This document shows positions 1,161 to 58,316 of a stretch of 64,000 nt of DNA, in pieces. This stretch comes from Myxococcota bacterium (GTDB lineage: Bacteria; UBA10199; JACPAL01; GCA-016699445): the NCBI GenBank assembly GCA_052033505.1, contig JBPOJN010000014.1, positions 5,599-69,598 of the forward strand, read 5' to 3'. Below the pieces are notes generated by a model. That model was not told where the DNA came from, made no database searches, and saw nothing but the letters and a program-made list of their open reading frames with translations. The first letter of the stretch is position 1. The number at the start of each line of letters is the position of its first letter. Position numbers and translations under genes: made by a program.

Positions 1161-1236
1161 GGTCTCCCCTTTGTGCGGTATCTTCCCGCCGAATTGTCAT
1201 TATTAGGGGACGAATGAAAACAAAAAATTTACGGGA

Positions 1237-2634: not shown

Positions 2635-2762
2635 ATCGTCTCCTGGTGGATCTTTCGTCGTTAGCTCAAGAAAGTTGTTGGAAAACAGGTAATGACCAAA
2701 AGACCTCGAATCAAGGGTTTAAGGAGTCTTGATTTGTTACCGCGCTACAGTAGAGCTGAGTT

Positions 2763-3224
2763 ATGCCTCCTCAATACTGGCTCCTGAAATCCGAACCCGG
2801 ATCCTATTCGATCGACGATCTGAAAAAAGACTGCAAGACGGCCTGGACCGGAGTGCGCAATTACCAAGCGCGGAATTTCATGCGCGACCAAATGAAGGTC
2901 GGCGATCTCGTCCTGTTTTATCATTCGAACGCCGAACCGCCCGGAGTTGCCGGCATCGCGCGCGTCTGTTCCGGCGCTCATCCGGACGAGAGCGCGTGGG
3001 ACGAGAACGACACGCATTATGATCCTCGTTCGACGAAGGAAAAGCCCGTTTGGATGCTGGTCGACGTAGAATTCGTCGAGAAATTCAAACGTTTCGTTTC
3101 TTTGGAAGAGATTAAAAATGAACCGAAGCTTGCGGGAATGCTCGTCCTCAAAAAAGGCCAACGTTTATCGGTGCAGCCGGTCGAAAGAGGGCATTTCGAA
3201 GTTTTGCGGAAAATGGGTTCTTAA
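2763..3224 (+). CDS. EVE domain (PUA-like) protein
   Basis: MPPQYWLLKSEPGSYSIDDL...WTGVRNYQARNFMRDQMKVGDLVLFYHS is the typical EVE/DUF55 N-terminal signature. Size (153 aa) fits a standalone EVE protein. Confidence 0.75.
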   Translation: MPPQYWLLKSEPGSYSIDDLKKDCKTAWTGVRNYQARNFMRDQMKVGDLVLFYHSNAEPPGVAGIARVCSGAHPDESAWDENDTHYDPRSTKEKPVWMLVDVEFVEKFKRFVSLEEIKNEPKLAGMLVLKKGQRLSVQPVERGHFEVLRKMGS

Positions 3225-3229
3225 AGGTC

Positions 3230-4432
3230 CTACAGCGTGAAATCCACCGAGATCGCATCGTGATCCGAGGCGGGGACGCCGTTGTGACGTAAGTCGCCCC
3301 AAACGCGAGGACGGACGCTTGCGCCTTTGAGCGCGGATTTGGCTTCGCCGTCGTTCAAAACCTTCAAGCCTTTTTGAGCAAACCAATCGAGCTTGAATGA
3401 GCACCTTCCGCCATAATCTTTCAAATCCCATTCCACGAAACGGAAACACCAGAGCGGGATCCAGTCGCGCAGGGACTTGAACTGCTTGAGGTCCTCGATG
3501 CTGTAGTGGTTCGTGCAGACGCCGAGTTCGTTGCAGTCTTTATAAGTGAAACCGTTCTTTTCCAGCATTCGGAAAAGCGCTTTTTCGAAATACAGGTCGG
3601 GATTTGGGTAATGCCGTTTCATCATGCGGTGGATGCCGACGCCCACGCGGACCCAGAAGCCGATGATGGAAGAGGTCGCATTATGTGAGTCATAAGTCGA
3701 CGTGTTCCAGTCGCCGCCCATGAGCGCGGTGGTCACTTTTTCCTCGTTCATGGCTTTTACCACCGCTTCAATTTCGTTCTTACGCGTCTTCTGCGTCGAA
3801 CGCATGTTCACGTGCTGGCAGGCTACCCGCAATTCGTGTCCCGCGAAGTTGATGGTCGCGATCAAGACGCGCTGCGTGCCCAGGCGCTTTTCCTTCCCGC
3901 TCATTTTATCGTGCGGGTTCGGGACGGAAACGATGCGGGGTTTGAGGATCGGGTAGCGCGAGAGGATGGCGTTGCCGTGTAAGCCCAGTTCGTTCTCGCC
4001 TTCCATGTCGCGTTCGGGACCGTTGCCTTTTTCGAGGTTTAAGTAAGATGGTGCGAAGAAGTAATTCATTCCCAAGGCCTTCGCCAGATCGCGTGCGACG
4101 TTGCGGTTACGCGAGCGGGCCATACCTAGGTCGGTTTCGGTGAGCAGCAGTACGTCCGCACCTGACATGACGTCGTGATTTTTCAGGAAATGCAGGATTT
4201 CTTCGTAGCAGGTACCACGCTCGACGTTCCAAGCGACGGCGCGGTAGTAGTTTTCCGGGGCGGGCATCGCGTGGTCGGCCGTCATCTCGAAGCTGTGCAG
4301 GACCTTCAGGATGCGAGGCTTCAAATCTTGATACAGCCGCGATTGTTCGAGCGAATTCGTCGAATTAAAACCCAAAAGAGCGGGTAGCTCCGTATGCAGG
4401 TCGTGCAGGATTTGCGGGGTGTGCTCGAACAT
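3230..4432 (-). CDS. endonuclease/exonuclease/phosphatase (EEP) family protein
   Basis: EEP hallmarks are present: AWNVERG near the N-terminus, DVLLLTE (catalytic Glu context), and C-terminal SDHDAISVDF (SDH motif). The ORF track extends this ORF to 5137, but that extension is antisense to gltB. Start was chosen at Met236 (MFEHTPQ, 4432); Met at MTADHAMPAPENYY is an alternative. Confidence 0.65.
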   Translation of the reverse strand: MFEHTPQILHDLHTELPALLGFNSTNSLEQSRLYQDLKPRILKVLHSFEMTADHAMPAPENYYRAVAWNVERGTCYEEILHFLKNHDVMSGADVLLLTETDLGMARSRNRNVARDLAKALGMNYFFAPSYLNLEKGNGPERDMEGENELGLHGNAILSRYPILKPRIVSVPNPHDKMSGKEKRLGTQRVLIATINFAGHELRVACQHVNMRSTQKTRKNEIEAVVKAMNEEKVTTALMGGDWNTSTYDSHNATSSIIGFWVRVGVGIHRMMKRHYPNPDLYFEKALFRMLEKNGFTYKDCNELGVCTNHYSIEDLKQFKSLRDWIPLWCFRFVEWDLKDYGGRCSFKLDWFAQKGLKVLNDGEAKSALKGASVRPRVWGDLRHNGVPASDHDAISVDFTL

Positions 4433-11180: not shown

Positions 11181-12803
11181 ATGACTCACATAAAATCCTT
11201 TTTTTTCGCGCTAACTGTGGTGGCAACCGTTTCCTTCTGGTCTCTTGAGGCCAAAACCGCCGAAATCGGTAATAACGATTTTCGCATCAGTGAAATGGGT
11301 CCCGACGGAGATATAAACTATTTCGCGCAATTGCCCGCCGTCGCTTATAACGACACGGATAACGAATATTTCGTGGTGTGGGCCGGAAGTGACGACGCGG
11401 GGGGCCTGCTTGCCAACGAAATCGAATTGTACGGCCAAAGGATCAATGCTGCGACCGGAGCGGTCTTAGGTGATCGCGTGCGTTTGACCCAAGTCGGCAC
11501 CGACGGCACCACCACACGGAGTGTTGTTGTCGGGCAAGGTTTTCGCCCTTCTGTCGCTTACAATAGCACCGACAACGAGTATCTCGTCCTCTGGGTCGCG
11601 GATGACGACGCCGCGGGCCTGGCGGATAACGAATTCGAAATCTTCGGACAACGCGTAGACGCGTCCACGGGACAACCCGTCGGTACCGACGATTTCCAGA
11701 TCAGCTCCATGGGTACGAACGGTAATACTGCTTTTTACGCCTACTTGCAGGATGTCGCCTACAACAGCATCGACGACGAATATCTGGTGGTTTGGGTCGG
11801 TCATTCGCCCACGACGGCGGTGAACGTAAACAACGATCTTTATGGGCAACGCATCGCGGGTGCGACGGGTGCTCTTCTGGGATCCAATCTCGCCTTGCGC
11901 GCCCCCGATACGGTCAATGAAGTTCCCGGCCATTCTCTAGACGTGGGCTTTCCCGCGGTTGCTTACAATCCGGCGGCCGGTGAATATTTGGTGGCCTTCA
12001 TGGGGGACGTCTTCGTCAACGATGACTCGGATATCTTCGCGCAGCGTGTGGACGGGGTGACCGGTATGCCGGTCGGCGTGGAATTCCGTGTCAGCGAGAT
12101 GGGCACGCAAGCGACGCCGGGCAATCCTTTCAGTGTGAATCTGCCGCGCGTGGCTTATAACGGCGACGCTGACGAATATCTGGTCGTATGGACCGGCGAC
12201 GATAGCGTGGATGAAAAAATTGAAGTCTACGGTCAACGTTTGACCGCCGCGACAGGAGCCGCGGTGGGTACTGACGATTTTCAGATCAGCTTCTCGGGCG
12301 ACCCGTCCGATACGGATTTTGGACCCAACTTATTCGCAGACGTGACTTACAATCCCAGAAACCGGGAATACTTGGTCGTATGGCAAGGTGATGTCGATGA
12401 GGGCGGCGGCCTCTTCGACAATGAATTTGAAGTTTTCGGCCAAAAGCTCGAATCCTCCGACGCTACGGCTATCGGCGACAGGATCCGCGTCAGCGACATG
12501 CAGGGGACCGGAAATACGAATGTCGACATCTTAGGTATCGCGTCGGCGTACAATGCGACGGATCAAAATTACCTGGTCGTCTGGAGCGGTGACGACGACG
12601 TCGCACCGTTGGTCGATGACGAGTTCGAGATTTTCGGGCAACTCCTCTCCGATCCCGAATGCGGCAACGGCGTCGTCGAAGGCAGCGAAGGATGTGACGA
12701 CGGTAATTTAACCGACGGTGACGGTTGTTCGGCCGCTTGCGTGGATGAACCGGGAGGCCCGGGGAGTTCAGGCGCTTCCGGCGGCTGTTCTTTAATGAGA
12801 TAA
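11181..12803 (+). CDS. secreted repeat protein: seven ~65-aa tandem repeats plus a Myxococcus-type cysteine-rich repeat and a C-terminal GGCSLMR
   Basis: Signal peptide MTHIKSFFFALTVVATVSFWSLEA. Seven repeats of the pattern YN(xTD)xEYLVVW..DD....L.DxEFEIFGQR....TG...G.D.FQIS.MG. C-terminus CGNGVVEGSEGCDDGNLTDGDGCSAAC matches the myxo cysteine-rich repeat pattern (TIGR02232-like), followed by GGCSLMR-stop. Confidence 0.7.
   Translation: MTHIKSFFFALTVVATVSFWSLEAKTAEIGNNDFRISEMGPDGDINYFAQLPAVAYNDTDNEYFVVWAGSDDAGGLLANEIELYGQRINAATGAVLGDRVRLTQVGTDGTTTRSVVVGQGFRPSVAYNSTDNEYLVLWVADDDAAGLADNEFEIFGQRVDASTGQPVGTDDFQISSMGTNGNTAFYAYLQDVAYNSIDDEYLVVWVGHSPTTAVNVNNDLYGQRIAGATGALLGSNLALRAPDTVNEVPGHSLDVGFPAVAYNPAAGEYLVAFMGDVFVNDDSDIFAQRVDGVTGMPVGVEFRVSEMGTQATPGNPFSVNLPRVAYNGDADEYLVVWTGDDSVDEKIEVYGQRLTAATGAAVGTDDFQISFSGDPSDTDFGPNLFADVTYNPRNREYLVVWQGDVDEGGGLFDNEFEVFGQKLESSDATAIGDRIRVSDMQGTGNTNVDILGIASAYNATDQNYLVVWSGDDDVAPLVDDEFEIFGQLLSDPECGNGVVEGSEGCDDGNLTDGDGCSAACVDEPGGPGSSGASGGCSLMR
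11330..12650 (+). repeat. seven in-frame tandem coding repeats (~195 nt each) inside CDS 11181-12803
   Basis: Repeated protein blocks starting YNDTDNEY, YNSTDNEY, YNSIDDEY, YNPAAGEY, YNGDADEY, YNPRNREY and YNATDQNY, each followed by EF(E/D)IFGQR about 25 aa later. Confidence 0.6.
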
Positions 12804-12815
12804 TCGGGAAGACAC

Positions 12816-13277
12816 ATGGAAATCGCGATCGCCTCCGACCATGGCGGCTTGGATTTGAAGCAACGAGTTTTAGATTTTTTGAAATCCCGGGATGTCGCCT
12901 ATCGCGATCTCGGCACGAGCACGGCGGAGTCCGTGGATTATCCCGACTATGCGGCCAAGGTCGCGAAGCTGGTCTCCGAAGGCCAGGTGTCCGCTGGGAT
13001 ATTACTTTGCGGAACCGGCGTCGGCATGTGTATCGCCGCGAATAAGTTCAAGGGCGTGCGCGCGGCTGTCGTCAGCGAGTCGTATTCTGCCCGCATGGCA
13101 AAAGAACACAACAACGCCAATATCCTCTGCTTAGGCGCGCGCGTGTTGACGAAAGAAGGCGCGGAAAAAGTCGAAACGATTTTGGCGGCTTGGCTAGACG
13201 CTTCCTATGCGGGCGACCGCCACACGCGCCGGTTGGATAAGATCCACGAAATCGAAAATAAGAATTTCAAAGCCTAA
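12816..13277 (+). CDS. rpiB: ribose-5-phosphate isomerase B (RpiB/LacAB family)
   Basis: MEIAIASDHGGLDLKQ...LLCGTGVGMCIAANKFKGVRAA...NILCLGARV are conserved RpiB motifs. Length is 153 aa. Confidence 0.85.
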   Translation: MEIAIASDHGGLDLKQRVLDFLKSRDVAYRDLGTSTAESVDYPDYAAKVAKLVSEGQVSAGILLCGTGVGMCIAANKFKGVRAAVVSESYSARMAKEHNNANILCLGARVLTKEGAEKVETILAAWLDASYAGDRHTRRLDKIHEIENKNFKA

Positions 13278-13280
13278 AGC

Positions 13281-14267
13281 TCACAACCATTTTTTCCGGC
13301 GGAAATAATACAAAAGTCCGCCGCCGACCGCCGCCATCAATCCGTAAGCGAGATAGTGTCCGTAAGGCCAATTGATCTCGGGCATGTATTTGAAATTCAT
13401 TCCGTAAATCCCCGTGATCACCGTCATCGGCAGCATCACGCACGACAGCATCGTCAGTACCTTCATCACGTCGCCGGCCTTATTCGAGGACGTCAGCAAA
13501 TGCGCTTCGACCAGGCCCGAAACCGCATCGCGGTGCGACTCCACCCGGTCGGTGATGCGCAGCATGTGGTCGTGCACGTTGGCAAGATAGGGGAGCGAAA
13601 AAGGCAACATCTCGTCATAGCCCGACTTTACGAGCTGGATGACGATGGCGAGCTGCTGGGCGACCATGCCTTTCAGCCGGATCAGGTTCCGGCGCAGCCC
13701 GAAAACTTCGGTCAGAAACCGCTCGTCGTGTTCTTTCAAGACGTCGTCTTCCATCTCGATGATCTTGCGTTCGAACTGGTCCAAGACCGGCGTGTAGAGG
13801 TTCGCGGCTTCGTCCAGAATTTTAGCGAGCAAAAAATCCGCGCCTCGGAAATAGTTTTTGGGGCTGATTTTCGAGCGTTCTTTGACAGTCTCGATGCTGC
13901 GTAAATGGGGCTTGTGATAGGTCACTAGGTAATGAGGCCCCAGGAAGAGGTCCAATTCGGCGCCTTTGAATTCCTTTTCGGAACTCTGAGGGAGGATTTC
14001 GTGCGTGATCAAAAAAAGATATTCGCCGTAATCCTCGACCTTCGGGTGATGCCGGGGCGAAAGGCAGTCGTCGATCGTGAGCGGGTGAAAATTAAAAACC
14101 GTATCCAGAAGCTCCGTTTCGGGAGGGGTGGGCTTTTCGATGTCGACCCACGTCACGCGGGAGCGGTCGGCGATGAGAGCTCGGAGATCGACCGGATCTC
14201 TTCGTTCTTCCAGTCCGGTTCTCTCATTATAAGTGAAGATCGTCAGCACGGGCCGCTTTTCTACCAA
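13281..14267 (-). CDS. corA: magnesium/cobalt transporter CorA
   Basis: C-terminal YGMNFKYMPE (the GMN signature), two C-terminal TM helices and a basic tail RRKKWL. 328 aa. Confidence 0.9.
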   Translation of the reverse strand: MVEKRPVLTIFTYNERTGLEERRDPVDLRALIADRSRVTWVDIEKPTPPETELLDTVFNFHPLTIDDCLSPRHHPKVEDYGEYLFLITHEILPQSSEKEFKGAELDLFLGPHYLVTYHKPHLRSIETVKERSKISPKNYFRGADFLLAKILDEAANLYTPVLDQFERKIIEMEDDVLKEHDERFLTEVFGLRRNLIRLKGMVAQQLAIVIQLVKSGYDEMLPFSLPYLANVHDHMLRITDRVESHRDAVSGLVEAHLLTSSNKAGDVMKVLTMLSCVMLPMTVITGIYGMNFKYMPEINWPYGHYLAYGLMAAVGGGLLYYFRRKKWL

Positions 14268-14412
14268 AGGCCGCGTACAAGGGCCACGAAAGAGTGGGTA
14301 AGCTAAACTTTCCTCGTATTCGCGAGAATACTCTATGTTATTTTCTATTGAAAACGGTGTTGCATGCCCTTGCGGAGTGTGACACCAAGCATGTTAAGAT
14401 TAGGAGAGGCTC

Positions 14413-16518
14413 ATGGAAATTTCTAGTTCAAAATTTATTTACTCCACGGCTTTCGCTGCTTTGGTGTTGTTTTCAATCTCTGCCGATGCCGCAACCGTGA
14501 CGAGTAACGCCGGAGACTGTGCGGCGGGTACTCTCCGCCAACTCGTTCACGATGCCGTCGACGGAGATGTCATTACCATTCCTGCGGGGATGACCGTCAC
14601 ATTGTCCAATGACAATTGTGCCGGTAATGACGGGGATAAAGACATCGACGTCGCCGCCGATATTACGATTCAGGGAGAAGATCGTTTAACAAGCATCGTC
14701 GATGCAGACGGAGACACATCCGTTTCTCGAGCTTTTCATATCGCCATTAACACCGATGTCGAGATCTCCCATCTGACCATCAAAGATGGTGTTGTTCTCT
14801 CAGGTGGAGGTGGCGCCATTCTTTTGTCTACAGGCGCCTCGCTTTTGATCAACGATGCTCTCATTACCAACAATGAGGCTGCATCGGCATTCTTCGAACA
14901 ACTAGGAGGGGCCATATTCACCGTCAGAGACTCCACTCTCATCATTGAAAATAGCGACCTAACTCTAAACTCGGCATACCGAGGTGGGGCTATTTACAGC
15001 AGTGGAAATGTCCTCATCCGGAACAGCAACCTCGAACAAAATTTTGTCTCCTCGACAACCGCCTCCTCCGGGGGTGCCATTTACAACTTGGGTGAGCTCA
15101 ACCTTGTCGACACGGCTGTCGTCTCTAACGAGTCATCAGGATCAGGAGGAGCCATCCGCTGCTCATCAGATGCAATGACGACCATCACCGGCACTGTAGG
15201 AAGCTCTCTCTGTAGTGTCAGTGGCAATCAAGCGAATGGTGGAGCGGGTGGTGCCATCCATGTCTCGGGCTCGATCATAATCGAAAACTGTCTCTTGGAA
15301 AATAATACCACCACCAGCACATCCAATCCCTCGAATGGAGGAGCCATCCACACCAGCAGTTCATTATCGTCAGTTTTCATCCGAGAAAGCCTGATCCAAA
15401 ATAATAGCTCTACCTACCAGGGAGGCGGAATTTACAGCGCTGGAAGCCTGATAGTCTCCGATAGTACTTTATCCGGAAATACCTCCGATTCCGATAATAG
15501 CGGCAACGGACTCGGAGGAGGCATCTACAGCGAAGATCTCGTCCTCACGAACTCTCTTATCACCGGCAATACGAACAACAGCGGTCAAGGCGGCGGAATT
15601 TATTTAAACAATGGATTGATTATGTCGAACAGCATCGTCTCTGAAAATACAGCGAACGACGGCGATGCAGGAGGCATCTTGGCCAATGGCACTTCTAGCA
15701 TTCGCAATAGCACGATTTCGGGAAATCGGGCCCTGGGGGACACAGGCACTCGCGATCACGATGGAGGAGGCCTCTACATCGCCGGCGCCTTGACACTCAG
15801 CAACAGCACGATTTCCGGAAACTCCTCGTCAGGTCATGGTGGTGGTATCTATGCATATGACAGTGTACCTCTGTTCATCAACAATACGACCATCGCCAGT
15901 AACCAAGCGAATTCTGATAGCGGCGGCCTGACGGCAGGCCAGGGTGGAGGGCTCTATGTCGACGTCTCCCAAGTCGTGATCGGCAATAGTATTATCGCGG
16001 ACAATGCCGATTCTGGTGTAGCCCCCGATTGTTTCTTCGATGCGACTGGCAACGGACACTTGACCATCGCCGGACCGACTTTGATCGAAACAGTCAATGA
16101 CGCTTGCGATCTTGCCGGAACAACAGCCCTTGTTCTGACAAGCGACCCTCTTTTCGCAACTGCAGGACTCGCCGACAATAACGGCCCTAGCGTGGGATAC
16201 CCATCAGCCACAACGACTTTGCAGACGATCAGTCTCCAGGACGCAAGCCCTGCCCTCAATGCGGGAGATACTTCCACCTGCCAAACAACAGATGCTCGAG
16301 GAATCCTACGTCCTCAAGGTTCTGCTTGCGAACTAGGATCTCTCGAAATTTTGGTCGATGCTGATGGAGATGGCGTGGGGGATGTTCAAGATAATTGCCC
16401 GGACGTTTCCAATCCGGATCAGGCGGATGCGGATAGCGATGGAATCGGCGATGCATGCGAATCCGACTCCACAAACGGCGGTGGATCGGGCGGCGGTTGT
16501 AGCCTCATCGCAGGTTAA
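14413..16518 (+). CDS. secreted right-handed beta-helix protein with PMP-like repeats, a C-terminal TSP3 repeat and GGGCSLIAG terminus
   Basis: Signal peptide. GGAIY/GGGIY plus N-rich turns recur over 15 times (motifs like the chlamydial polymorphic membrane protein GGA[ILV] and FxxN). C-terminus DADGDGVGDVQDNCPDVSNPDQADADSDGIGDACE is a thrombospondin type-3 calcium-binding repeat, then GGGCSLIAG-stop. Confidence 0.7.
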   Translation: MEISSSKFIYSTAFAALVLFSISADAATVTSNAGDCAAGTLRQLVHDAVDGDVITIPAGMTVTLSNDNCAGNDGDKDIDVAADITIQGEDRLTSIVDADGDTSVSRAFHIAINTDVEISHLTIKDGVVLSGGGGAILLSTGASLLINDALITNNEAASAFFEQLGGAIFTVRDSTLIIENSDLTLNSAYRGGAIYSSGNVLIRNSNLEQNFVSSTTASSGGAIYNLGELNLVDTAVVSNESSGSGGAIRCSSDAMTTITGTVGSSLCSVSGNQANGGAGGAIHVSGSIIIENCLLENNTTTSTSNPSNGGAIHTSSSLSSVFIRESLIQNNSSTYQGGGIYSAGSLIVSDSTLSGNTSDSDNSGNGLGGGIYSEDLVLTNSLITGNTNNSGQGGGIYLNNGLIMSNSIVSENTANDGDAGGILANGTSSIRNSTISGNRALGDTGTRDHDGGGLYIAGALTLSNSTISGNSSSGHGGGIYAYDSVPLFINNTTIASNQANSDSGGLTAGQGGGLYVDVSQVVIGNSIIADNADSGVAPDCFFDATGNGHLTIAGPTLIETVNDACDLAGTTALVLTSDPLFATAGLADNNGPSVGYPSATTTLQTISLQDASPALNAGDTSTCQTTDARGILRPQGSACELGSLEILVDADGDGVGDVQDNCPDVSNPDQADADSDGIGDACESDSTNGGGSGGGCSLIAG

Positions 16519-16545
16519 TGAACTCTAAAAATTTAGGAGAACCCT

Positions 16546-18594
16546 ATGACATTTTTTAAACGACTCACACTCCTGGCCTTCTTCGCATCGATCTTGCCTC
16601 TCGCAACACAGGCCGCGACGATCACGGTCAATACGACCGAAGATGAGATCAATACCGACGGAGACTGTTCCCTCCGAGAGGCTATCGTCTCATCCAATAG
16701 CGATACAGCGACGGACGCCTGCACCGCAGGCAGTGGGGTAGATACGATTGTAATTCCAGCGGGAACTTATACCTTAAGCCTCACCGGATCCGGAGAAGAT
16801 CTCTCAGTCACAGGAGATTTAGATATCTTGCAAGACGTTACACTTTCTGGAGCAGGGGCCAGCGCCACCATCATCAATGGCAACGGGACCGTCACACAGG
16901 ATCGCGTGTTTCACATCGATCCTGCCTTAAGTACCATCGGCATCTCGGTCACCATCTCCGGACTCACCATTCGCGGCGGTAGAACCACATCAGCCGGCGG
17001 TGGAATTTTGATTTCCGGGGAAGGCTCTTTAAGACTCTCCCTATCTCACGTGGAAGATAATGTAGGGGGCGGAAGCGGAGGCGGAGGTATCGCACTCCCT
17101 GAGAGTAGCGGTGGCTCCCTCATCCTCTCCGGCTCTACGATCAGTGGCAATGAAAGTGATACTCACGGCGGTGGTATCTATACTTTCGAGGCATCCGTCT
17201 TAATCACCGATGGAAGTGTCATCTCAGGTAACACGGCCCTTCATGCTGGTGGTGGCATCAGCACCGGTGATAATTCCTCGATCCTAGAAATCATCGAAAG
17301 TCAGGTATCGGACAATACATCTTTTGCAGGCGGCGGCGTTTTTAGCTTGGGCATGACTCGCATCACCGACTCCACTGTCAGCGGCAACAGTGCTTCTGGC
17401 AACGGCGGCGGCCTGCATCTCTCCGATTCTGAGATCCTCGGCACGACGATTCAAGATAACGACGCTATCAACGAAAGTAACGGCGGCGGACTCTATACGG
17501 ATGGATCCTTCACCAAGATCTCCAACTCTTCTATCTCAAATAACCGCTCCGACGGAGCTGGCGGAGGACTCTATTTCGGGGCAGATATCGGCGTCATCGA
17601 AGATAGTCACATCACGGATAACCTCTCTAATTCGAACAATGATGACAACGCTGACGGTCCCGGAGGCGGTATTTACAGCCAAGCAAATTCTCTAACCATC
17701 CTTCGCAGTCACATCACCGGCAACACCTCAAATCGCTACTGGGCAGGTGGTATCGGCTTCGAATCAGGCAGTGGGTCATCGCTCCTCATAGAGGATTCGA
17801 CGATTTCAGATAATACCTCGACGGATAGTTATGGTGGCGGCCTTGTTCTAGACACCTATTCTTGCATCATTCGCTCCAGCACGATTTCGGGAAATAGCGC
17901 TCTGGGGGACACTCAGAATTCTGGCACTACCGACAGCGAAGGTGGTGGCATGTATATCAATGGTGGCTCACACTGCGTCATCGAAAATACAACGATCGCT
18001 AACAACATCGCTGATGGCGGTGGTGGCGGCATCGCTAACTTTGCTGAGCTACAACTCAATCATGTCACCATCACCGGAAACACTGCCGATCATGGTGTTG
18101 GCGGTGCCTCGAATGACACAGGTGGTGGAATCTATCACTCCGGAGTTAGCGGTTTGCTCGTACTCAATTCTATCATTAGTGGAAACAGTGATGCAGGATC
18201 GAGTGGTAACGAGTACGCCGATTGTTTCACCAACAGCTCTGCTTATCTCGTCTCTTCTGGCCCGAATATTATCCAAGATACGACAGGATGTACGATTCAT
18301 GGAGACACCCCCATCTCGGCAGATCCTCTGTTCGACACCGCTGGCCTTATCGACAATGGTGGTTTGACACTGACAATTTCTCTTCAGAGTGGAAGCCCTG
18401 CGATCGATGCAGGTGGCTCTACGACATGCTTACCCACCGATCAGCGCGGTGCTTCAAGGCCCGTCGATGGAAATAGCGATAGCACCGCCCAGTGCGATCT
18501 CGGCGCCGTTGAGCTTTCGTCTACAGTCCCGACGCTCGCGACCGAAACTCTTGGCCAGAATCAGGCCTCTGGTGGTTGTAGTTTAGTACGATAA
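16546..18594 (+). CDS. secreted beta-helix protein with PMP-like repeats (paralog of the upstream gene), terminus GGCSLVR
   Basis: Signal peptide MTFFKRLTLLAFFASILPLATQAA. Repeated GGGIY/GGGLY motifs throughout. Ends ...GQNQASGGCSLVR-stop. An AGGAGA RBS lies 28 bp after the stop of the upstream paralog. Confidence 0.7.
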   Translation: MTFFKRLTLLAFFASILPLATQAATITVNTTEDEINTDGDCSLREAIVSSNSDTATDACTAGSGVDTIVIPAGTYTLSLTGSGEDLSVTGDLDILQDVTLSGAGASATIINGNGTVTQDRVFHIDPALSTIGISVTISGLTIRGGRTTSAGGGILISGEGSLRLSLSHVEDNVGGGSGGGGIALPESSGGSLILSGSTISGNESDTHGGGIYTFEASVLITDGSVISGNTALHAGGGISTGDNSSILEIIESQVSDNTSFAGGGVFSLGMTRITDSTVSGNSASGNGGGLHLSDSEILGTTIQDNDAINESNGGGLYTDGSFTKISNSSISNNRSDGAGGGLYFGADIGVIEDSHITDNLSNSNNDDNADGPGGGIYSQANSLTILRSHITGNTSNRYWAGGIGFESGSGSSLLIEDSTISDNTSTDSYGGGLVLDTYSCIIRSSTISGNSALGDTQNSGTTDSEGGGMYINGGSHCVIENTTIANNIADGGGGGIANFAELQLNHVTITGNTADHGVGGASNDTGGGIYHSGVSGLLVLNSIISGNSDAGSSGNEYADCFTNSSAYLVSSGPNIIQDTTGCTIHGDTPISADPLFDTAGLIDNGGLTLTISLQSGSPAIDAGGSTTCLPTDQRGASRPVDGNSDSTAQCDLGAVELSSTVPTLATETLGQNQASGGCSLVR

Positions 18595-19391
18595 GCTTTT
18601 TGGAGAAGGCCGGTGACGATACGCGCGTTGCCGGCCTTTTTTCTTTCGATCCATCCTACCGGCATGATGTCTTTGAGCGAGCTCGTGATAAAAATTTCGT
18701 CGGCATGATTCAGGGCCGCAGCACACAAGCTTTTCTCTACCACCGGTATTTTCAAGCTTTTGGCAAGTTCCATCACGAAACGTCTTCGTGTCCCGGGAAG
18801 CAATCCATCGCTGATGGGAGGCGTGATCAACACACCTTTTGTCACGATGAAAAGATTACTCGAAGCGCCTTCGGTCACATACCCCGATTCATTCACCATC
18901 AAGGCTTCATCCATGTTGCGTCGAGCGGCTTCTCGTCGTGGGATCATTTTGCTTAAATAGCTCGTCGTTTTGATCCGAGAGAGGGTCTTCGAATCCGCCG
19001 AAAAACTTTTGGAGTACATCACTCGCGCACCCTGTGTGTAACACCGCTCCGGATAAGACTGAAAAGGGTTGGCCGTCATGACCAATCGCGATTTGCTCAC
19101 CTCAGCTTCGGAAAGCATCACACGAACTTGAGAGTCTCTAAGTCGATTTTTTCTTAAGAGAGCATGGATCCATTTTTTAAAATCATGAAGAGACACCGGA
19201 ACCTTCAGGCCTATGAGATTGGCATTATCCTGGAGCCTTCGAAAATGTCTCTGAAGAAGCAAAACACGACCCGCCATCACTCTCATGGTCTCAAAAAGGC
19301 CAATCCCATAAAGATAAGACGAGTCCGTCACTGGCAAAACGGCACGCGACTGCGGGACTATCTTTCCATCGATCCCTATGAAATGACCCAT
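18561..19391 (-). CDS. pabC: class IV aminotransferase, probably aminodeoxychorismate lyase
   Basis: Fold-type IV motifs: ...GIDGKIVP...AVLPVTDSSYLYGIGLFET and ESGYVTEGASSNLFIV. It lies downstream of pabB on the same strand. Start chosen at MGHFIG (19391); the ORF track extends to 19484. Confidence 0.65.
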   Translation of the reverse strand: MGHFIGIDGKIVPQSRAVLPVTDSSYLYGIGLFETMRVMAGRVLLLQRHFRRLQDNANLIGLKVPVSLHDFKKWIHALLRKNRLRDSQVRVMLSEAEVSKSRLVMTANPFQSYPERCYTQGARVMYSKSFSADSKTLSRIKTTSYLSKMIPRREAARRNMDEALMVNESGYVTEGASSNLFIVTKGVLITPPISDGLLPGTRRRFVMELAKSLKIPVVEKSLCAAALNHADEIFITSSLKDIMPVGWIERKKAGNARIVTGLLQKAYRTKLQPPEA

Positions 19392-19461
19392 GTTTTTGAT
19401 CCTGCCTGTTTTCCGAGCCAAAAACACGCATCTTTTGCGTCCCGCGGCCGATAACTCCCAC

Positions 19462-19791
19462 ATGATAGACATCATCATCCTCATGGTCGGCCTGGCCGCT
19501 TTAAGCCTCGGTATGGGCTATATCTTCAAGCCCCGTAAAGTCGGCAAGGCTGTTTCTTATATGCGCAAGAAACTGGAGCGCATGGAGCGCCGCCTGTCGC
19601 GTTCGCCGCGTTCGTACAAACGCACCGGATGGTCTTTTGCAGGCTTGGGTTTTATTTTGGTGTTCACCTATCTTCAGCCTATTTGGATCTACAACGCCAT
19701 CGTGCTCTTCCGCATGTCGATGGGCGTGATTTTTCCGCACATGTTTCAACAGGTCACGACCGTGCAGACCACGCCCGTCCTCTGTATTTGA
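19462..19791 (+). CDS. small two-TM membrane protein, hypothetical
   Basis: MIDIIILMVGLAALSLGMGYIF ... (basic loop) ... WSFAGLGFILVFTYLQPIWIYNAIVLF. GC-rich third codon positions. It occupies the 400-bp gap between pabB and pabC on the opposite strand. Confidence 0.35.
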   Translation: MIDIIILMVGLAALSLGMGYIFKPRKVGKAVSYMRKKLERMERRLSRSPRSYKRTGWSFAGLGFILVFTYLQPIWIYNAIVLFRMSMGVIFPHMFQQVTTVQTTPVLCI

Positions 19792-23482: not shown

Positions 23483-25168
23483 ATGCAAGTAAAACCGTTT
23501 TTTCCGGTGGTTCATCCGACGGGAGCCCAGCCTGTGCGGCTTTGGGTTTGTCCGGGGCAAGGATCTCAAAGTGTCGGCATGGGTCAGAAGTTGTACGACT
23601 CTTCCCGGACTTACCGCGAGACCTTCGATCGGGGACATGCGGCTCTTGTTTCAGAAGGCGTCGATTTACGGCGCTTGGCTTTCGAAGGACCCGCCGGTGA
23701 TTTGACCCGCACTCTCCACGCGCAACCTGCTTTGCTTGTTTCGAACGTAGCATTGGCGGAACACCTGCGTATCGAAGAAGGTATCGCACCGAGTCCCGGC
23801 GATCTTCTGGCGGGCCACAGTTTAGGTGAGTGGACGGCCTATACGATTTCAGGCGCATTGACGGTGGAGCAGGGAGCTTTGGCGGTTTATTGGCGTGGCC
23901 GGCTCATGGAAGAAGCTTTTCCCTTCGATCCCGCCACGCGTCCGATGACGGCTATTTTAGGATTGTCCGATCAAACTGTGATCTCGGCTTGCGCGGGAAT
24001 CAGCCGCGAAGGCCATATCGTGGTCGCCGCGAATTTCAACGCTCCGGGCCAGGTCGTCATCTCGGGCCATCCCGCCGCGGTCGCCGAAGCCTCGGATCTC
24101 TTGAAGTCCCGCGGCGCGGGCGTCAGCAACGCCTTTCCCGTCGCCGGTCCTTTCCATACGCCCATCCTCAGCGAAGCCCGCGAAAAACTAGCGGCTAAAA
24201 TCGCCGAACTCGGCATCGAATTCAGTATCCCGGAATTCCAAATCATTTCCAATTTTACGGGCCGTGAGATCGAGCCCGTGGGAGACCATCTCGGTTCTCT
24301 GTTGAACCAATTGACCGGATCCGTCCGTTGGACTGCGTCGATGGTTCGCGCTTGGGAGTTGGGAGCGGTGGAAATGGTGTCCTTGGACGTGTCGGGAAAC
24401 GTGCTGCAGGGATTCGCGAAGAAGATTTTTTCCCGTGAGAGACCGGTGCAGATCGTGGATCCGACAATATCGATGCATCAGCATGCCCTGAGGCAAGCAC
24501 CGGGTTCGATCAGTACGACCCGGTTTGCGGAAGATCCCGTACAGAAGAGAAACAACTGCTTGGAATTTTCCTACAATGCGGGCGCTATCGTTAAAATTGT
24601 CAGGAAACTTTTAAAAGAAGGCGACGTCCAAACCGCGTTGCTGGCCCTGAAAAACACTTACAATAGCGCGCGCGAAGCCGCCATGCGTGAGCTGAAATCG
24701 CATGCGGATTCCTTGGAAGTGATTCAAGCGATGAGGGAAGGCGGTTTCGTCGATGAGGCAGGCGATCTCATATGGCCCGATCCGGTCGTGCGGGATCTTG
24801 TGACTCATACGCTTCCTCCAGATAGTTTAACTGCCCTTACCCTCGGGAAAGATTCCATTTTCAGTAAGTTGGAGGCCTTGAGTCTAGCTCCTATCGACCA
24901 AGAAGACCTTATCTATTATGTCGCAAGCCGGTGGAATGGAGACGCGCAACGTCTTGAAAAAATCCTGAGTGCCCTTCGTTACCTTTTGGTCAAGGGCGAT
25001 CCTAAGAAGCACAAAAAATCCTTACTCCCGTTGATACAGTACAAAGACCAAAACGGCGAATCCCAGAAAGGCATTGATAGCTGGGAGGCCGTCATTCTGT
25101 ACGTGGATGGGGAAAAAGACGTCCAATTCCCCCATCCTGGAGCCATGAAGCAGGGAGATATTTTATGA
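23483..25168 (+). CDS. FabD-like malonyl-CoA:ACP transacylase domain protein with a 250-aa C-terminal extension
   Basis: CPGQGSQSVGMG (GQGSQ) and AGHSLGEWTA (GHSxG active-site Ser) motifs, then ...ANFNAPGQVVISG...GPFHTPIL as in FabD. A ~250-aa unknown tail follows and contains KSHADSLEVIQAM, which resembles ACP helix II (GADSLDTVEL). GAGGGGA RBS. Confidence 0.8.
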   Translation: MQVKPFFPVVHPTGAQPVRLWVCPGQGSQSVGMGQKLYDSSRTYRETFDRGHAALVSEGVDLRRLAFEGPAGDLTRTLHAQPALLVSNVALAEHLRIEEGIAPSPGDLLAGHSLGEWTAYTISGALTVEQGALAVYWRGRLMEEAFPFDPATRPMTAILGLSDQTVISACAGISREGHIVVAANFNAPGQVVISGHPAAVAEASDLLKSRGAGVSNAFPVAGPFHTPILSEAREKLAAKIAELGIEFSIPEFQIISNFTGREIEPVGDHLGSLLNQLTGSVRWTASMVRAWELGAVEMVSLDVSGNVLQGFAKKIFSRERPVQIVDPTISMHQHALRQAPGSISTTRFAEDPVQKRNNCLEFSYNAGAIVKIVRKLLKEGDVQTALLALKNTYNSAREAAMRELKSHADSLEVIQAMREGGFVDEAGDLIWPDPVVRDLVTHTLPPDSLTALTLGKDSIFSKLEALSLAPIDQEDLIYYVASRWNGDAQRLEKILSALRYLLVKGDPKKHKKSLLPLIQYKDQNGESQKGIDSWEAVILYVDGEKDVQFPHPGAMKQGDIL

Positions 25169-26844
25169 TCATGCAAGCCGGTTCGAAGTCTCCGACTCCA
25201 GGGCGCATCGCGATTGTGGGTTATGGATCTTGTAATTCCCTGGGAACCGCGGAAACGTCTTACTTAACGCGGACCGGTCGGTTCCAGGAAGCGTTGCCCG
25301 AATATGCCAGGCTCACGGGTATTACCGACAGGGATGTCATCGATCGCCGCATCGGCATTCGGGTTCCTCGCCTGGGGGATTTAGAGCAGCCGATCGATAT
25401 TCAGCGTTTTCAAGGACATCGACTGGAACGCCTTAAAGAAGATGGAACGATCAATGGCCGTACTTTACGAAAAGGCGCTGAACCTCTACTCGAACACACT
25501 TGGAAATTGCCCGTAGTCCATGCGGGTGCTTTGCCTTCCGGATGGGATTTGCTGAAAGAGGCCGGTTTTTCGGGGAAACCTTATGATCAGTTCAGTAGGG
25601 CGCATTTGATTTTGATGCGGTCTCTCGCGGAAGCCATGATCTCCATGGGCGTTCCTTGGTCCGAGATCGAGCGAAAAGTGCCCGAAAAGCAAAGAGCCGT
25701 CGCGGCTGCGTTCGGCATGGGGCCTGGAGAAGACTTATATGAAGGCATGGCTTTTCCCGCTCTCAAACGATCGGTCAGAAAAGATATAGTCGCCCGTTTT
25801 TTGCCCGATAATCCCGCTTATTGGCTCCAAAAAATATTAAAAGCCCGCCATGCCTCTTCGCGGGTCGCGGCCTGTAATACGGGTATCGCCAATCTTGAAT
25901 TCGCGTTTCTGGCCATGAAAGCGGGAATGGCCCGCTTCTACGCGGTCGCCTCCGCGGATTCCCTGCTTAATGAGATAGCGATCGTGGATTTCAACGCGCA
26001 AAAAGCTTTAGCCACGGATTTGTCCGTATCCAATCTCATGGATCATCCCAGCTTGGTTTCTCGACCCGGTACCACGGATCGTTCGGGTTTCGTCTTGGCC
26101 GAAGGCGGGGGCGTTCTTCTCTTGATGGAGGAAACTTTGGCTTTCGAGACCGGGGCCATTATTTACGCCTATCTGGACGGCGTTGCCACGGCTACCGGCC
26201 AGTCCAAGTCTCAAGATCCGGCAGCGCCTACCGACGGCGGCATTCTTTCTATGACGAACGGCCTTGAAATGGCCGCGGCTTCCTGCGGGATGACTGAAGA
26301 AGAATACGTCCAATTTTTGACCGTGATCAATGCCCACGGCACTTCCACACCCGCGGGAGATGAGAACGGAATGGCGGGTTACGATAGAGTTTTAAGGGAA
26401 AAAAGACGTGATCCCAGATCTCCCGTGTTTGTCGTTTACGGTAAGGGAGGCCCTCGTTTGGATGGTATTCCTAGCGCGAGACGGGTGGGTAACGGAGGCA
26501 CGGGACATTCATTGGGAGGAGCGTCCTTGGTCGCAGCGGTCGAGACGATCCAAATGCACCGTTACGGAATCATTCCTCCTTCCGTTGGAAGTTTAGATAG
26601 CGTCGATCCTAGAATCTTGGAATCCGCTCATCTTTTGTATCCAACTCAACCATTGAGTGAGAACGTCGTGAAGGCTCAAACTAGCGCCCAAGGATTCGGT
26701 GACAGCAACGGAGATATGTTCACCAGCCAAAATCCGGATCATGGAACCCAAAATCCCGAAGCGGTCGCCAGACGTGACCGATGGACGGAAGAAGTGAAGT
26801 CAGGGCAAAAGAAGCCGGCGGAGTTCGTGCCGGTGATTGAGTAA
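25165..26844 (+). CDS. beta-ketoacyl synthase (KS) family protein, divergent
   Basis: KS motifs: RIAIVGYGSCNSLG at the N-terminus, active-site Cys237 in VAACNTG (TGT at 25873-25875), DRSGFVLAEGGGVLLL, His in INAHGTSTPAGD, and GHSLGGAS. About 70 extra residues lie N-terminal to the Cys compared with FabF. The start overlaps the upstream stop (ATGA). Confidence 0.75.
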   Translation: MIMQAGSKSPTPGRIAIVGYGSCNSLGTAETSYLTRTGRFQEALPEYARLTGITDRDVIDRRIGIRVPRLGDLEQPIDIQRFQGHRLERLKEDGTINGRTLRKGAEPLLEHTWKLPVVHAGALPSGWDLLKEAGFSGKPYDQFSRAHLILMRSLAEAMISMGVPWSEIERKVPEKQRAVAAAFGMGPGEDLYEGMAFPALKRSVRKDIVARFLPDNPAYWLQKILKARHASSRVAACNTGIANLEFAFLAMKAGMARFYAVASADSLLNEIAIVDFNAQKALATDLSVSNLMDHPSLVSRPGTTDRSGFVLAEGGGVLLLMEETLAFETGAIIYAYLDGVATATGQSKSQDPAAPTDGGILSMTNGLEMAAASCGMTEEEYVQFLTVINAHGTSTPAGDENGMAGYDRVLREKRRDPRSPVFVVYGKGGPRLDGIPSARRVGNGGTGHSLGGASLVAAVETIQMHRYGIIPPSVGSLDSVDPRILESAHLLYPTQPLSENVVKAQTSAQGFGDSNGDMFTSQNPDHGTQNPEAVARRDRWTEEVKSGQKKPAEFVPVIE

Positions 26845-26872
26845 GAAAATAATTTTCATCGAAAGGTCGATT

Positions 26873-28753: not shown

Positions 28754-28772
28754 AATTTAAGGAAACTTCATT

Positions 28773-30917: not shown

Positions 30918-30966
30918 TTTTTGCGCAACTCTTTCTCCATTCAAGCGACACATTGCGACACTTTTT

Positions 30967-42425: not shown

Positions 42426-42427
42426 AG
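41423..42427 (+). CDS. IS30-family transposase
   Basis: N-terminal HTH (LSLRAIAKVLSRSPSSLSREIKRN). DDE region with GHWEVDLVES...YDNGAENA, as in the IS30 signature (HWEGDLI...DNGxEF). 334 aa. A start at Met7 (41441) is also possible. Confidence 0.8.
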   Translation: MLVPVRMKKAYLHLNQQERTFLEGSLLQGLSLRAIAKVLSRSPSSLSREIKRNGKRVGRSRKAVYESRKAQEKAGKRFKETHRKIRLKNLWIREYVISKLLNRWSPELIAGRLSLDHPDLRISHETIYQWIYEEAPEYVRYLAKKRRLRRSRTYSLKTGQVNFIPGRVLIDERPYLINARQDAGHWEVDLVESYLKRGGLQVVCERKTRYTLVNKMRSLRGMEARAHLVKRMKHLPSWMCQSLTYDNGAENACHLFVNRHLGTRSYFCHPYHGWEKGTVENTIGIVRRFYPKGTDFREVSEDEVKDLETWLNNRPRKCLAFKTPAEAFKQECCT

Positions 42428-45791: not shown

Positions 45792-45818
45792 AAGTTGCCA
45801 CGAATGTGAGTGTAGGGG

Positions 45819-56246: not shown

Positions 56247-58316
56247 ATGAAGACAAAAATGATGATTTTCGCGGTGATGGCAGCAGCCTTCTTGGGCATT
56301 GGTTCCAAGGCTCATGCCGCTTGGGGACCGGATTATTGCGATTTGGTCGCAGGCACTCCGGATCAATTGGCCACGGGACTGAAAGAAGCCTTTCGGTTGT
56401 ACAGTCTTCCCGATGAAGACCGCCAATGTCGATTCGGCGTTCGCGTCAAGCTTGCGAGCAAGATCAATCTCCCGAGCGGTTTCACCTTGAATCGTTTACC
56501 TCTCCCGGGTCAGACCGAGAGATTTACCCTGAGAAAGTGCCTGACTCCGGAATCCGGTTGTCCCGAGTTATCCAATACCGATGTCGTTCTCGATTTATCG
56601 GAAGCCTCCGACATTTGCCCGATTCAAATTTCCCACTTCACCGCCGCTAAAATTGAAAACTTAAAAGTGATCGCGAAAAATCCTGCACGCGCCATTTGCG
56701 ATGACGCCGGCGTGACGATTCCTAAAGAACAAGCCAATCATCCTGCGGCTTACCTTCATAACGTAACCATTTGCTCTGTGGCGAATCCAAATTGCGAAGG
56801 CAATACGGTAGATACCGACGGCGACGGTGTGGCTGACGGCGACGACAATTGTCCTACCGTTTCCAATCCGAGCCAGACCGACACCGATGGTGACGGCCAA
56901 GGCGACGCTTGCGATACCGATGATGACGGTGACGGCATCCCGGACGGCGAAGACCAATGTCCTCTGCAGCCCGGCACGGCCGAAAATCACGGCTGTCCTC
57001 CGAACGGCGGCGATCAGGACGGCGACGGTATTCCGGATACGGCCGACCTTTGCGATCGCGATTCGACGGGCAATGCTTGCGACTCCACGAACCTCTCGGC
57101 GTGTTTCCCGAACGCCGTAGACAATCTCTGCAGCGCGATGTCCCCCGGCAGCTCTTGCAGCGAGACCGAAGACATGGATCACGACGGACGCGGTAATGCT
57201 TGCGACGTCGATGTCGATGGTGACGGTTTGTCCAACGCCTCCGATCCCGACGCGTTCGATGCCGATGCCGATAACGACGGTCTCTGCGACGGCCCGGTCA
57301 TCGTGACGGCCGTCTGTACCGAAGCTTCCGATCCTTGCCCTCTTTTGAATGGTGTGATCCGCAATACCTTAGGCCAGTGCGCTCCCGAGCCCACGAACCC
57401 GACGGACGCGGATCCGGACGGAGACGGTCTGACGAACGCGCTTGAAGACATGATCGGTACGAACCGCAACCAGGCCGATACCGACAACGACGGCGCGAAG
57501 GACGGCGTGGATTGCTACCCTCTGGACGCGACCAAGTACCTCTGCGGTGGCGGCTCGACCGTGACCGATCCCGACTTTGACAACGACGGTATCTGCGACA
57601 CGGCGCAGAGCGCGACGGATCCCATCACGGGACGCGCCTGTACACCGAACGCTCAAGGCCTCGGTGATAACTGCCCGGCCACGGCGAATCCGAATCAGGC
57701 CGACGCGAACAATAACAACGTCGGTGACGCGTGTGAAATCAGCTCCAGCATCGACGGTGACGGCGATACTTTGCCGGACGATCTCGAAGAAGGCGTGTTT
57801 CATACGGATCCGACTCTTCCGGACACGGATCATGACGGCCTGAGAGATGATGTCGAAGTCAACGGCCCGACTTACATGGGCGGCGACGGTCCTCTGAATC
57901 CGGACATCGACGGCGACGGTATCTGCGACGGTCCCGCGACGGTCACCGACATCTGCACCGCGGGCCCCAACGGCACGGGTGACAACTGCCCGATCGTCTC
58001 GAACGCCGACCAGGCGGATGAAGACGGCGACGGACGCGGTGACAAGTGTGAAGGCGACATGGACGGCGATGGCGTGGCGGACGAGGTCGACAACTGCATC
58101 TTCGTGGCGAACACGAACCAGTTGAACTCGAACGACACCGGCCCGGGCGACGCCTGCGAACCGAACATGAGCACCAGCGGCATCGACGGCGGTTGCCAAC
58201 TGAACGCCTTCGGCGAAGGGAAAGTGAACTTAGGCTCCGTCTTCCTGATGACGGCGTCCTTCGCGATCCTGCTGGGTTTCAGCGCGGTGGCACGCCGTAA
58301 AAAGGCGGACCTTTAA
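56247..58316 (+). CDS. secreted TSP3-repeat protein, paralog of 51939-55313, with a MYXO-CTERM-like tail
   Basis: GGGAGA RBS and signal peptide. The N-terminal 190 aa are ~65-70% identical to the paralog ([15 protein letters not shown]...[18 protein letters not shown]...[15 protein letters not shown]). Fewer and more irregular TSP3 repeats follow. C-terminus [11 protein letters not shown]...TM helix...RRKKADL. Confidence 0.75.

Follow-up and report, generated by a model that had tools for sequence, protein, structure and literature searches.

Among the C-terminal sorting signals described for prokaryotes, those built around an invariant cysteine are closest to the element reported here. They include MYXO-CTERM (TIGR03901), whose myxosortases MrtX, MrtC and MrtP are of the CPBP family, and JDVT-CTERM (NF033191), which is paired with the CPBP protease MrtJ (NF033192). 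Such signals are described as tripartite in a preprint by Haft (10.1101/2023.06.07.544157) and by Guo et al. (PMC11980579), and the accessible portion of the preprint contains neither the term "truncated" nor the term "short form." We have analyzed a 64,000-nucleotide stretch of a Myxococcota contig (JBPOJN010000014.1; hereafter the window), in which three secreted proteins end with a Gly-Gly-Cys-Ser-Leu motif followed by only two or three residues and a stop codon. This ending, the short tail, shares its core with the start of two long tails in the window that each include a transmembrane (TM) helix. The best reading of the evidence is that the short tail is a lineage-restricted, TM-less variant of the Cys-containing tripartite signals of the class to which MYXO-CTERM and JDVT-CTERM belong.

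MrtX cleaves MYXO-CTERM in a Cys-dependent manner, and lipidation prior to cleavage is a proposed model, wherein the precursor is exported by Sec, retained in the inner membrane by its TM segment, lipidated on the cysteine, cleaved after this residue by MrtX, and displayed through type II secretion; the leading candidate for the lipidation step is Lgt or an Lgt-like enzyme (PMC11980579). JDVT-CTERM normally has one client per genome, encoded beside MrtJ (10.1101/2023.06.07.544157). We found no NCBIfam or Pfam model that covers the short form, and our literature search found no paper in which GGCSL, GCSLIR or GCSLVR is presented as such a signal.

Five cysteine tails in the window

The proteins that carry the two kinds of tail, and the tails themselves, are as follows.

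11181..12803, + strand: open reading frame (ORF) of secreted 540-aa protein 1, ending ...SGGCSLMR-stop; signal peptide, seven-bladed beta-propeller (aa 27-490), Cys-rich acidic repeat (aa 492-525), G/S-rich linker, short tail
12780..12803, + strand: short tail G-G-C-S-L-M-R and TAA stop; the rpiB ATG is at 12816
14413..16518, + strand: ORF of secreted 701-aa protein 2, a PMP-repeat beta-helix protein ending ...GGGCSLIAG-stop; choice-of-anchor Q domain (aa 602-645), TSP3 repeat (aa 649-670), then G-rich linker and short tail
16492..16518, + strand: short tail G-G-C-S-L-I-A-G and TAA stop, a variant ending
16546..18594, + strand: ORF of secreted 682-aa protein 3, ending ...SGGCSLVR-stop; CSLREA N-terminal domain (aa 26-51), right-handed beta-helix, choice-of-anchor Q domain (aa 600-657), linker, short tail
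18571..18594, + strand: short tail G-G-C-S-L-V-R and TAA stop, into which the 3' end of the convergent gene 18561-19484 extends
51939..55313, + strand: TSP3-repeat protein with about 23 repeats and a long tripartite Cys tail; the ORF opens at 51861, and a signal peptide begins at M27 (nt 51939, the probable start)
55194..55313, + strand: long tail with GGCSLM, spacer, TM helix (Kyte-Doolittle 2.13 over 15 aa), RFFRK and stop
56232..58316, + strand: second TSP3-repeat protein, which shares its N-terminal domain with the 51939..55313 protein and has a long Cys tail
58188..58316, + strand: long tail with GGCQL (GGCQLN...), spacer, TM helix (Kyte-Doolittle 2.15), RRKKADL and stop

A preliminary description of this DNA had reported three signal-peptide proteins with GGCSL tails, secreted and otherwise unrelated to each other, and had noted the same core in the two longer tails. 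The ORFs and C termini are as it described, and comparison of the five ends yields the common core GGC[SQ]L. Proteins 1 to 3 each begin with a typical Sec signal peptide (an h-region and then an AxA-like site, judged by eye), and their architectures differ. In protein 1, aa 492-525 match TIGR02232 and DUF4215 (NCBIfam/Pfam), and an AlphaFold 2 (AF2) model (predicted TM-score, pTM, 0.80) is structured over aa 27-490, for which the top PDB matches are PL24 lyase and sialidase propellers. The last 49 residues of this model (aa 492-540) are disordered, with a predicted local distance difference test (pLDDT) score below 50. In both beta-helix proteins, the tail is closely preceded by choice-of-anchor Q, which NCBIfam defines as a domain found just upstream of interchangeable C-terminal anchors. 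The ORF at 51861-55313 has the C terminus ...GGCSLMTATAGASASMPTAAAVLGLLMSLPMMAVRFFRK-stop.

When all six frames of the window are read, the pattern GGCxL is present exactly five times in the 64 kb, and all five occurrences are these C termini. Given the amino acid composition of the window, only 7e-5 genes would be expected to have GGCSL starting 7-9 residues from the end, versus the three seen (P(>=3) of about 7e-14). The motif is thus far more frequent here than chance would allow.

We found no hydrophobic or TM tail encoded in any frame downstream of the three short-tail stops. Indeed, there is no space for a lost TM segment, because neighboring genes abut or overlap these stops. The gap between the first stop and the start of rpiB is 12 nt, and the gap between the second stop and the next tail gene is 27 nt, including an AGGAG ribosome-binding site before that gene. 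In an independent Logan assembly (L001) of this sample, the first two genes terminate identically, and the contig ends within the third. A consensus scan revealed no convincing terminator after the third gene. Stop-codon readthrough, frameshifting and recoding are ruled out, as all three stops are TAA and other genes follow directly.

The G-rich, low-complexity linkers that precede the tails, and the source of the DNA in a metagenome assembly, could suggest that the tails arise by chance, from low complexity, or from errors of assembly or gene calling. This explanation is refuted by the P value given above, by the agreement of two assemblies on the first two genes, by the presence of the same tail in at least 15 other assemblies, and by the genes that abut the stops.

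The short tail in other genomes

In at least 15 independent assemblies, a total of 41 distinct proteins terminate in the same short tail, whose consensus is [GS]-G-G-C-S-L-[IVLM]-R-stop. This set was gathered through homology to two carrier families together with one DNA motif pattern, and the census is biased accordingly. At positions that the search pattern left free (numbered from Cys as 0), Ser is found at +1 in 38 of the 41 tails, Ile, Val, Leu or Met at +3 in all 41, Arg at +4 in 32, and a stop directly after +4 in 26. Every tail has 4-8 residues after the cysteine, with the stop at 4 or 5 in 34 of 41. The preliminary description had spoken of a conserved terminal tripeptide and of a Cys 2-7 residues from the C terminus. 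Instead, the common element is the pentapeptide G-G-C-S/Q-L, to which the short form adds [IVLM]-R, and the distance of the cysteine from the end ranges from 4 (26/41) to 8 residues. In 15 tails, the Arg is followed by one to four more residues (IRS, VRR, IRK, VRNP, IPTKY and others); about five of the 41 end in RR, RK or KR, and most have a single R.

Codon usage in the motif varies among copies, wherein Ser is encoded by TCN and AGY, Leu by CTN and TTR, and Arg by CGN and AGR. The 25 residues ahead of the motif are rich in G, T, S and D and are hypervariable. The conservation of the tail residues despite varied codons and an unconserved linker suggests that selection acts on a peptide signal, and argues against both a DNA repeat and drift. 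Thus, the short tail is very probably a genuine, selected C-terminal signal.

Such a signal might be read without covalent modification, if the heptapeptide were recognized by a component that binds C termini (for example, a PDZ-like domain, a secretin or pilotin, or a tail-specific protease) for secretion, quality control or surface retention, and if the cysteine were kept only for binding. The near-fixed distance to the carboxylate (stop after +4 in 26/41), the conserved hydrophobic-then-basic ending, and the exposure of the tail on a disordered linker in the AF2 model are consistent with this idea. However, 15 of 41 tails tolerate one to four additional residues after the Arg, which argues against strict reading of the carboxylate, and the invariant residue is a cysteine, as it is in all four known CPBP-linked signals (10.1101/2023.06.07.544157). 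We regard non-covalent recognition as an improbable account of the motif.

Eight attributes of prokaryotic C-terminal sorting signals have been listed by Haft (10.1101/2023.06.07.544157), and six of these are seen in the short tail. It is located at the C terminus (Cys 4-8 residues from the end in 41/41) and has at least three invariant residues (G-G-C-S-L, with the Ser present in 38/41 though not forced). An N-terminal signal peptide is present on most members, given that 36 of 38 tail proteins with an intact N terminus have a hydrophobic N-terminal segment by a crude rule. The carriers have no similarity beyond the signal, and include PF22847-like propellers, CSLREA/beta-helix proteins, PMP-repeat and TSP3 proteins, DUF7948+SBBP proteins, DUF5122 propellers, and proteins that have no Pfam hit. 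Homologues elsewhere bear a different signal or none. Finally, there are multiple copies per genome: three in the window, seven in CBDCFN01 (six within 17 kb of L057 and one in L066), five in DASUFF01 (three consecutive genes in L023 and two in L014), and three each in DATIGE01/GCA_035454885.1 (L081) and on contig L090, in addition to two on L176 and one in JAJFLM01 (L020). The two attributes that the short tail lacks are the strongly hydrophobic TM segment in the middle, where the motif has only one or two hydrophobic residues after it, and the 2-5 terminal basic residues, where most tails have a single R.

Unrelated short-tail genes are often arranged as tandem arrays. Locus L023 of DASUFF01, the closest relative, is syntenic with the window (gltB, gltD and then tail genes; GltD is 80% identical), and its PMP beta-helix protein is a full-length homologue of protein 2 that ends in GGCSLIR. 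Homologues of protein 1 that are 40-56% identical occur in other metagenomes and terminate as ...GGCSLIR, ...GGCSLVR, ...GGCSLMR or ...GGCALLR, and some homologues of protein 3 likewise end in the short tail. In two genomes, ORFs whose N termini closely resemble each other adjoin tail genes (L057 18302-19165 and L079 8990-9826), and the L079 copy is annotated as DUF4423, a weak hint that the lineage may be Bdellovibrio-like or "delta-proteobacterial."

The number of cysteines per protein, counted after a crude signal-peptide cut, is odd in 26 of the 41 proteins and even in 15, and in the propeller family the tail Cys is a fifth, in addition to four in the Cys-rich repeat. These counts bear on a lipid-free alternative, wherein the protein is released to the periplasm or medium (for example, by type II secretion) and the unpaired cysteine forms an intermolecular disulfide or another covalent bond, whether to a surface protein, to a matrix component, to a second copy of the protein or to some other partner, with GG and SL-phi-R (phi being a hydrophobic residue) serving as context for an oxidoreductase or for the partner. 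Such a tether or oligomerization tag is also consistent with the position of the cysteine at the tip of a flexible linker (AF2) and with the resemblance of the carriers to adhesins and binding proteins (propellers, beta-helices, TSP3). Moreover, it needs no membrane retention step, which fits the absence of a TM helix. It leaves unexplained, however, why TM-containing tails in the same genomes open with this very motif and why homologues swap it for membrane-anchoring signals. Nor does a disulfide partner obviously need five to seven invariant residues at a fixed distance from the C terminus. We consider a tether unlikely, although it carries the most weight among the rival readings.

To scan metagenome contigs at the DNA level, the pattern was narrowed to Ser=TCN and stop=TAA (14 fixed bases). 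Of 91 matches, most are chance occurrences in short ORFs (up to about 100 codons) that lack a linker, whereas matches in long ORFs mostly have a G/T/S linker or an adhesin-type context; about eight loci carry real tail genes, among them L090, L138, L140, L149, L171 and L174. Locus L130 is doubtful. There, a Peripla_BP_6 periplasmic binding protein (364-1647) ends ..RKGGGCSLIR-stop with no G/S/T linker, and this ending could be either a chance match or a genuine recruitment of the tail by a solute-binding protein. A 12-column tail profile was dropped, as true tails score 16-19.5 bits, which corresponds to E values of 240-3800 against a collection of 5.8 billion proteins.

Long tails and other endings on homologous carriers

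The short tail at 12780 and the long tail at 55194 have the hexamer GGCSLM in common. Likewise, the short-tail protein of L138 (...FIKGGADGMGGCSLVR-stop) aligns across the motif with the window long-tail TSP3 protein (...FIKGGAGGCSLMTATAG and then the TM helix), and P0263, a homologue of the TSP3 N-terminal domain, ends FGCQLIK-stop, whereas its relatives continue from GGCQL into a TM helix. Three genomes contain both the long and the short form.

Counted in residues past the cysteine, tail length is bimodal: 4-8 (n=41) versus 31-41 where a TM helix and a basic cluster are present (n=16), with only three tails between these ranges. Long tails seldom have the phi-R pair after GGCSL. These two findings mark the short form as a class of its own and not the product of random cuts. 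Had long MYXO-CTERM-type tails been cut by nonsense mutation or deletion, to leave functionless remnants on proteins that are merely secreted, long and short forms on homologous carriers would be expected, as observed. Indeed, one stop codon would convert the SLVK stretch of the P0262 long tail (GGGCSLVKDAP...) to a short form. Random cuts would nevertheless spread the lengths, but 34 of 41 tails stop 4 or 5 residues past the cysteine and almost none at 9-30. Furthermore, S, L, phi and R are kept, by different codons, across proteins that are only 31-56% identical elsewhere, and few long tails have phi-R at the corresponding place. Decay is very improbable, and this explanation is largely refuted.

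The term "truncated sorting signal" used in the preliminary description comes near to the best reading. Its proposal of a distinct signal under selection, rather than an assembly truncation, is borne out by the 41 proteins from many assemblies, by the bimodal length, and by a phi-R-stop ending that is mostly specific to the short form. We place the probability that the short tail belongs functionally with the Cys sorting signals at roughly 0.55.

Homologues of the window carriers also bear known signals in place of the short tail. Several propeller homologues have GGGGC[AS]L..DP..LL..RRR tails, and two of them (P0009 and P0022) score 42-46 bits on JDVT-CTERM NF033191, for which the cut-off is 27. 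Others bear PEP-CTERM-like, TM plus basic, YLPLVxR and other tails. When the N-terminal domain of the TSP3 protein was used as query, a third homologue search returned no matches; an exhaustive HMMER search of representatives returned 25 relatives, nearly all of which have long Cys tails. Two of these tails, with a GCGC motif (P0248 and P0250), score above the TIGR03901.2 cut-off.

In contrast, none of the five window tails (three short, two long) matches any NCBIfam model at E<=10, including TIGR03901.2; the P0248/P0250 matches to TIGR03901.2 and the P0009/P0022 matches to NF033191 served as positive controls. The earlier assignment of the two TSP3 tails as MYXO-CTERM-like thus holds for their tripartite layout and for the tails of their homologues, but not for a match of their own to the hidden Markov model (HMM) TIGR03901.2. 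Given that this model misses both long tails of the window and detects those of homologous carriers (P0248, P0250), it appears from the sequences not to cover the GGC[SQ]L variant of this lineage.

Two other TM-less endings recur among these homologues. The first is very common and has the form x-[YFW]-[LIM]-P-[LIV]-[IVL]-x-[KR] plus 0-3 residues and a stop (for example, ..LYLPLVVR-stop, ..IYLPIIQK-stop and ..FLPLVIR-stop). It is carried by homologues of the propeller as well as of the CSLREA/beta-helix proteins (P0003-P0007, P0013, P0122-P0124, P0135, P0137, P0145, P0160, P0177 and others), and the few carriers that have source names are mostly labeled Chloroflexota or Anaerolineae. As judged from its sequence, this ending looks like a second minimal signal composed of a motif plus a basic residue, and we know of no description of it. 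The other, ..F[AE]DGFESGDTSAWSxTVP-stop, is found on propeller homologues P0028, P0029, P0034, P0035, P0048, P0070, P0085 and P0087 and at loci L029 and L065. In addition, the propeller protein at L007 1094-3286 (JABDRC010000361.1, from a metagenome-assembled genome named "Halobacteria archaeon") has a tail that differs little from the P0009 tail, itself a JDVT-CTERM by HMM score. Bacterial-type genes adjoin it, and this contig is probably a binning contaminant.

Other features of the window are as follows.

23483-32397, + strand: cluster resembling fatty-acid or polyketide synthase genes, with an acyltransferase (561 aa), a ketosynthase-like protein (559 aa), an unknown protein (638 aa), an enoyl reductase and MaoC dehydratase fusion (714 aa), and a second unknown protein (476 aa)
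42564-51607, - strand: four consecutive large ORFs (1075, 899, 335 and 661 aa) with no Pfam hit, lower GC content (about 0.50) and strong GC/AT skew; this block may be mobile or horizontally acquired
41423-42427: ORF adjoining the previous block, transposase-like by guess only
55345-56136, + strand: gene for a Bax1-I/YccA-family membrane protein, located between the two long-tail TSP3 genes

A candidate pathway and its counterparts among known signals

The pathway that we infer for the short tail, from modification of the cysteine to the final location of the protein, would begin with export of the precursor through Sec by its N-terminal signal peptide. The folded domain would be followed by a long disordered linker rich in G, T, S and D, such that the extreme C terminus could reach the membrane surface. 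There, GGCSL, which also opens the long tails of the same genomes, would be recognized by the same or a paralogous Cys-modifying enzyme, and this enzyme would most likely place a lipid on the thiol. The S-L-phi-R segment might then act like the aaX portion of a CaaX box, as a recognition element that is probably removed after lipidation by a glutamic intramembrane protease of the Rce1/CPBP type. The outcome would be a surface or outer-membrane protein held by a lipidated C-terminal cysteine, whose precursor needs no TM helix. Rce1-type CPBP proteases are known to cut TM-less tails after Cys lipidation, both in eukaryotes and, in the case of archaeal MmRce1, in vitro (10.1101/2023.06.07.544157). 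This precedent suggests that the short tail most likely feeds the same Cys-modifying step through GGCSL. We rate the chain as a whole, in which a TM-less Cys signal is lipidated, cleaved and used for anchoring, at slightly under even odds, and we propose the specific combination of lipidation and CPBP cleavage only tentatively.

Several points weigh against this interpretation. To our knowledge, all described prokaryotic C-terminal sorting signals hold their substrate by a TM helix and a basic cluster. We likewise know of no precedent for a soluble periplasmic lipidation substrate and of no soluble periplasmic lipid transferase. No gene for a CPBP, rhomboid, Lgt-like or sortase-like protein was seen among the selected or precomputed proteins of the window, its 10-kb flanks (about 84 kb in all) and other tail-bearing contigs, in a scan that comprised Pfam/NCBIfam searches of selected window genes and tail-array neighbors and precomputed Pfam assignments for ten further contigs. 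The genes beside JDVT-type propeller homologues (L007, L178, L179) also include no MrtJ. The tail Cys is at -5 to -9 rather than at the CaaX position of -4, and the frequencies at G-1, C0 and L+2 in the census are uninformative, because the search pattern forced them. An unpaired tail Cys in the propeller family fits a modification site weakly, and the parity of 26 odd to 15 even is likewise a weak signal. Finally, the lipid of MYXO-CTERM itself has never been demonstrated (PMC11980579).

A signal that consists of a motif only and serves many clients challenges the requirement for membrane retention by a TM helix. Taken further, bacteria may possess a periplasmic counterpart of the CaaX pathway, wherein GGCSL-phi-R is lipidated and trimmed by a CPBP/Rce1-type protease to anchor adhesin-like proteins, although we hold this broader proposal to be doubtful. 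If it were true, no earlier C-terminal sorting signal of prokaryotes would share the short tail's independence of a membrane-spanning segment, and the tail would be the missing link that joins long signals of the MYXO-CTERM type to the CaaX box of eukaryotes. The occurrence of long and short forms of one motif in the same genomes, and even in the same protein families, constitutes a natural experiment that can reveal whether Cys modification, CPBP cleavage and surface export depend on the helix. Since the Cys-modifying enzyme of MYXO-CTERM is still sought, a seven-residue substrate would be a convenient probe. Also, annotation pipelines miss short tails, and thus their adhesin-like carriers would be called soluble.

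The resemblance to eukaryotic CaaX and CaaaX signals, which are served by a prenyltransferase and by Rce1 (CPBP family) or Ste24, lies in a very short, TM-less signal with an obligatory cysteine that is followed by small or aliphatic residues. In addition, the protease superfamily of these signals is also that of the long bacterial Cys signals. CaaX clients are cytosolic, however, with Cys exactly four residues from the end, and there is no CaaX counterpart for the GG before the tail cysteine. The short tail is not a CaaX box, because its Cys is at -5 (26/41) to -9 and its carriers are exported by Sec, and no prenyltransferase is implied. Legionella CaaX effectors are prenylated by the host after delivery, and the short tail could analogously mimic a CaaaX box to be modified in a host or prey cell. 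Farnesyltransferase (FTase) can use CaaaX pentapeptides as substrates, and C-S-L-[IVLM]-R has the length that this enzyme accepts (PMC8584866, PMC11121372). But the carriers have Sec signal peptides and are large, disulfide-containing proteins of extracellular type rather than injected effectors, 15 of the 41 tails have extra residues past the Arg that break the box, and the motif is common to TM-containing bacterial sorting tails. Mimicry of this kind is scarcely credible.

GlyGly-CTERM, the signal of rhombosortase, also has a C-terminal Gly-Gly signature on surface proteins of Gram-negative bacteria. Its clients depend on type II secretion, and a lipid-type anchor is attached to them after cleavage. 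Unlike the short tail, GlyGly-CTERM lacks a cysteine, has a TM helix and basic cluster, and is cut by a serine protease of the rhomboid family. The lipobox ([LVI][ASTVI][GAS]C; Lgt/LspA) likewise places a cysteine by small residues, with a hydrophobic and a basic element beyond it, such that the short tail read in reverse, R-phi-L-S-C, approximates a minimal mirror image of a lipoprotein signal peptide. The lipobox is N-terminal, however, and needs a membrane-embedded signal peptide, and the S/G-G-G that precedes the tail cysteine does not fit it.

JDVT-CTERM is nearer, in that its signature opens with GGGC[AS]L, the same core, and is found on the propeller family. It differs by a DP motif nine residues past the cysteine, a Leu-rich TM helix, an Arg cluster, and a single client beside MrtJ, whereas short tails end before the DP position, have many clients per genome, and were found with no adjacent protease. 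With respect to MYXO-CTERM, the long tails at 55194-55313 and 58188-58316 have the tripartite architecture. The short tails have no TM helix, one Arg (sometimes RR or RK), a phi-R-stop ending of their own and no HMM score, and in the absence of the helix and basic cluster they are neither MYXO-CTERM nor JDVT-CTERM as these are defined. Even so, both the short tail and MYXO-CTERM place an invariant cysteine within a Gly-rich C-terminal motif, on a disordered linker, in many unrelated Sec-exported surface proteins per genome, including TSP3 and Cys-rich-repeat carriers, and the short tail corresponds to the first five or six positions of such tails.

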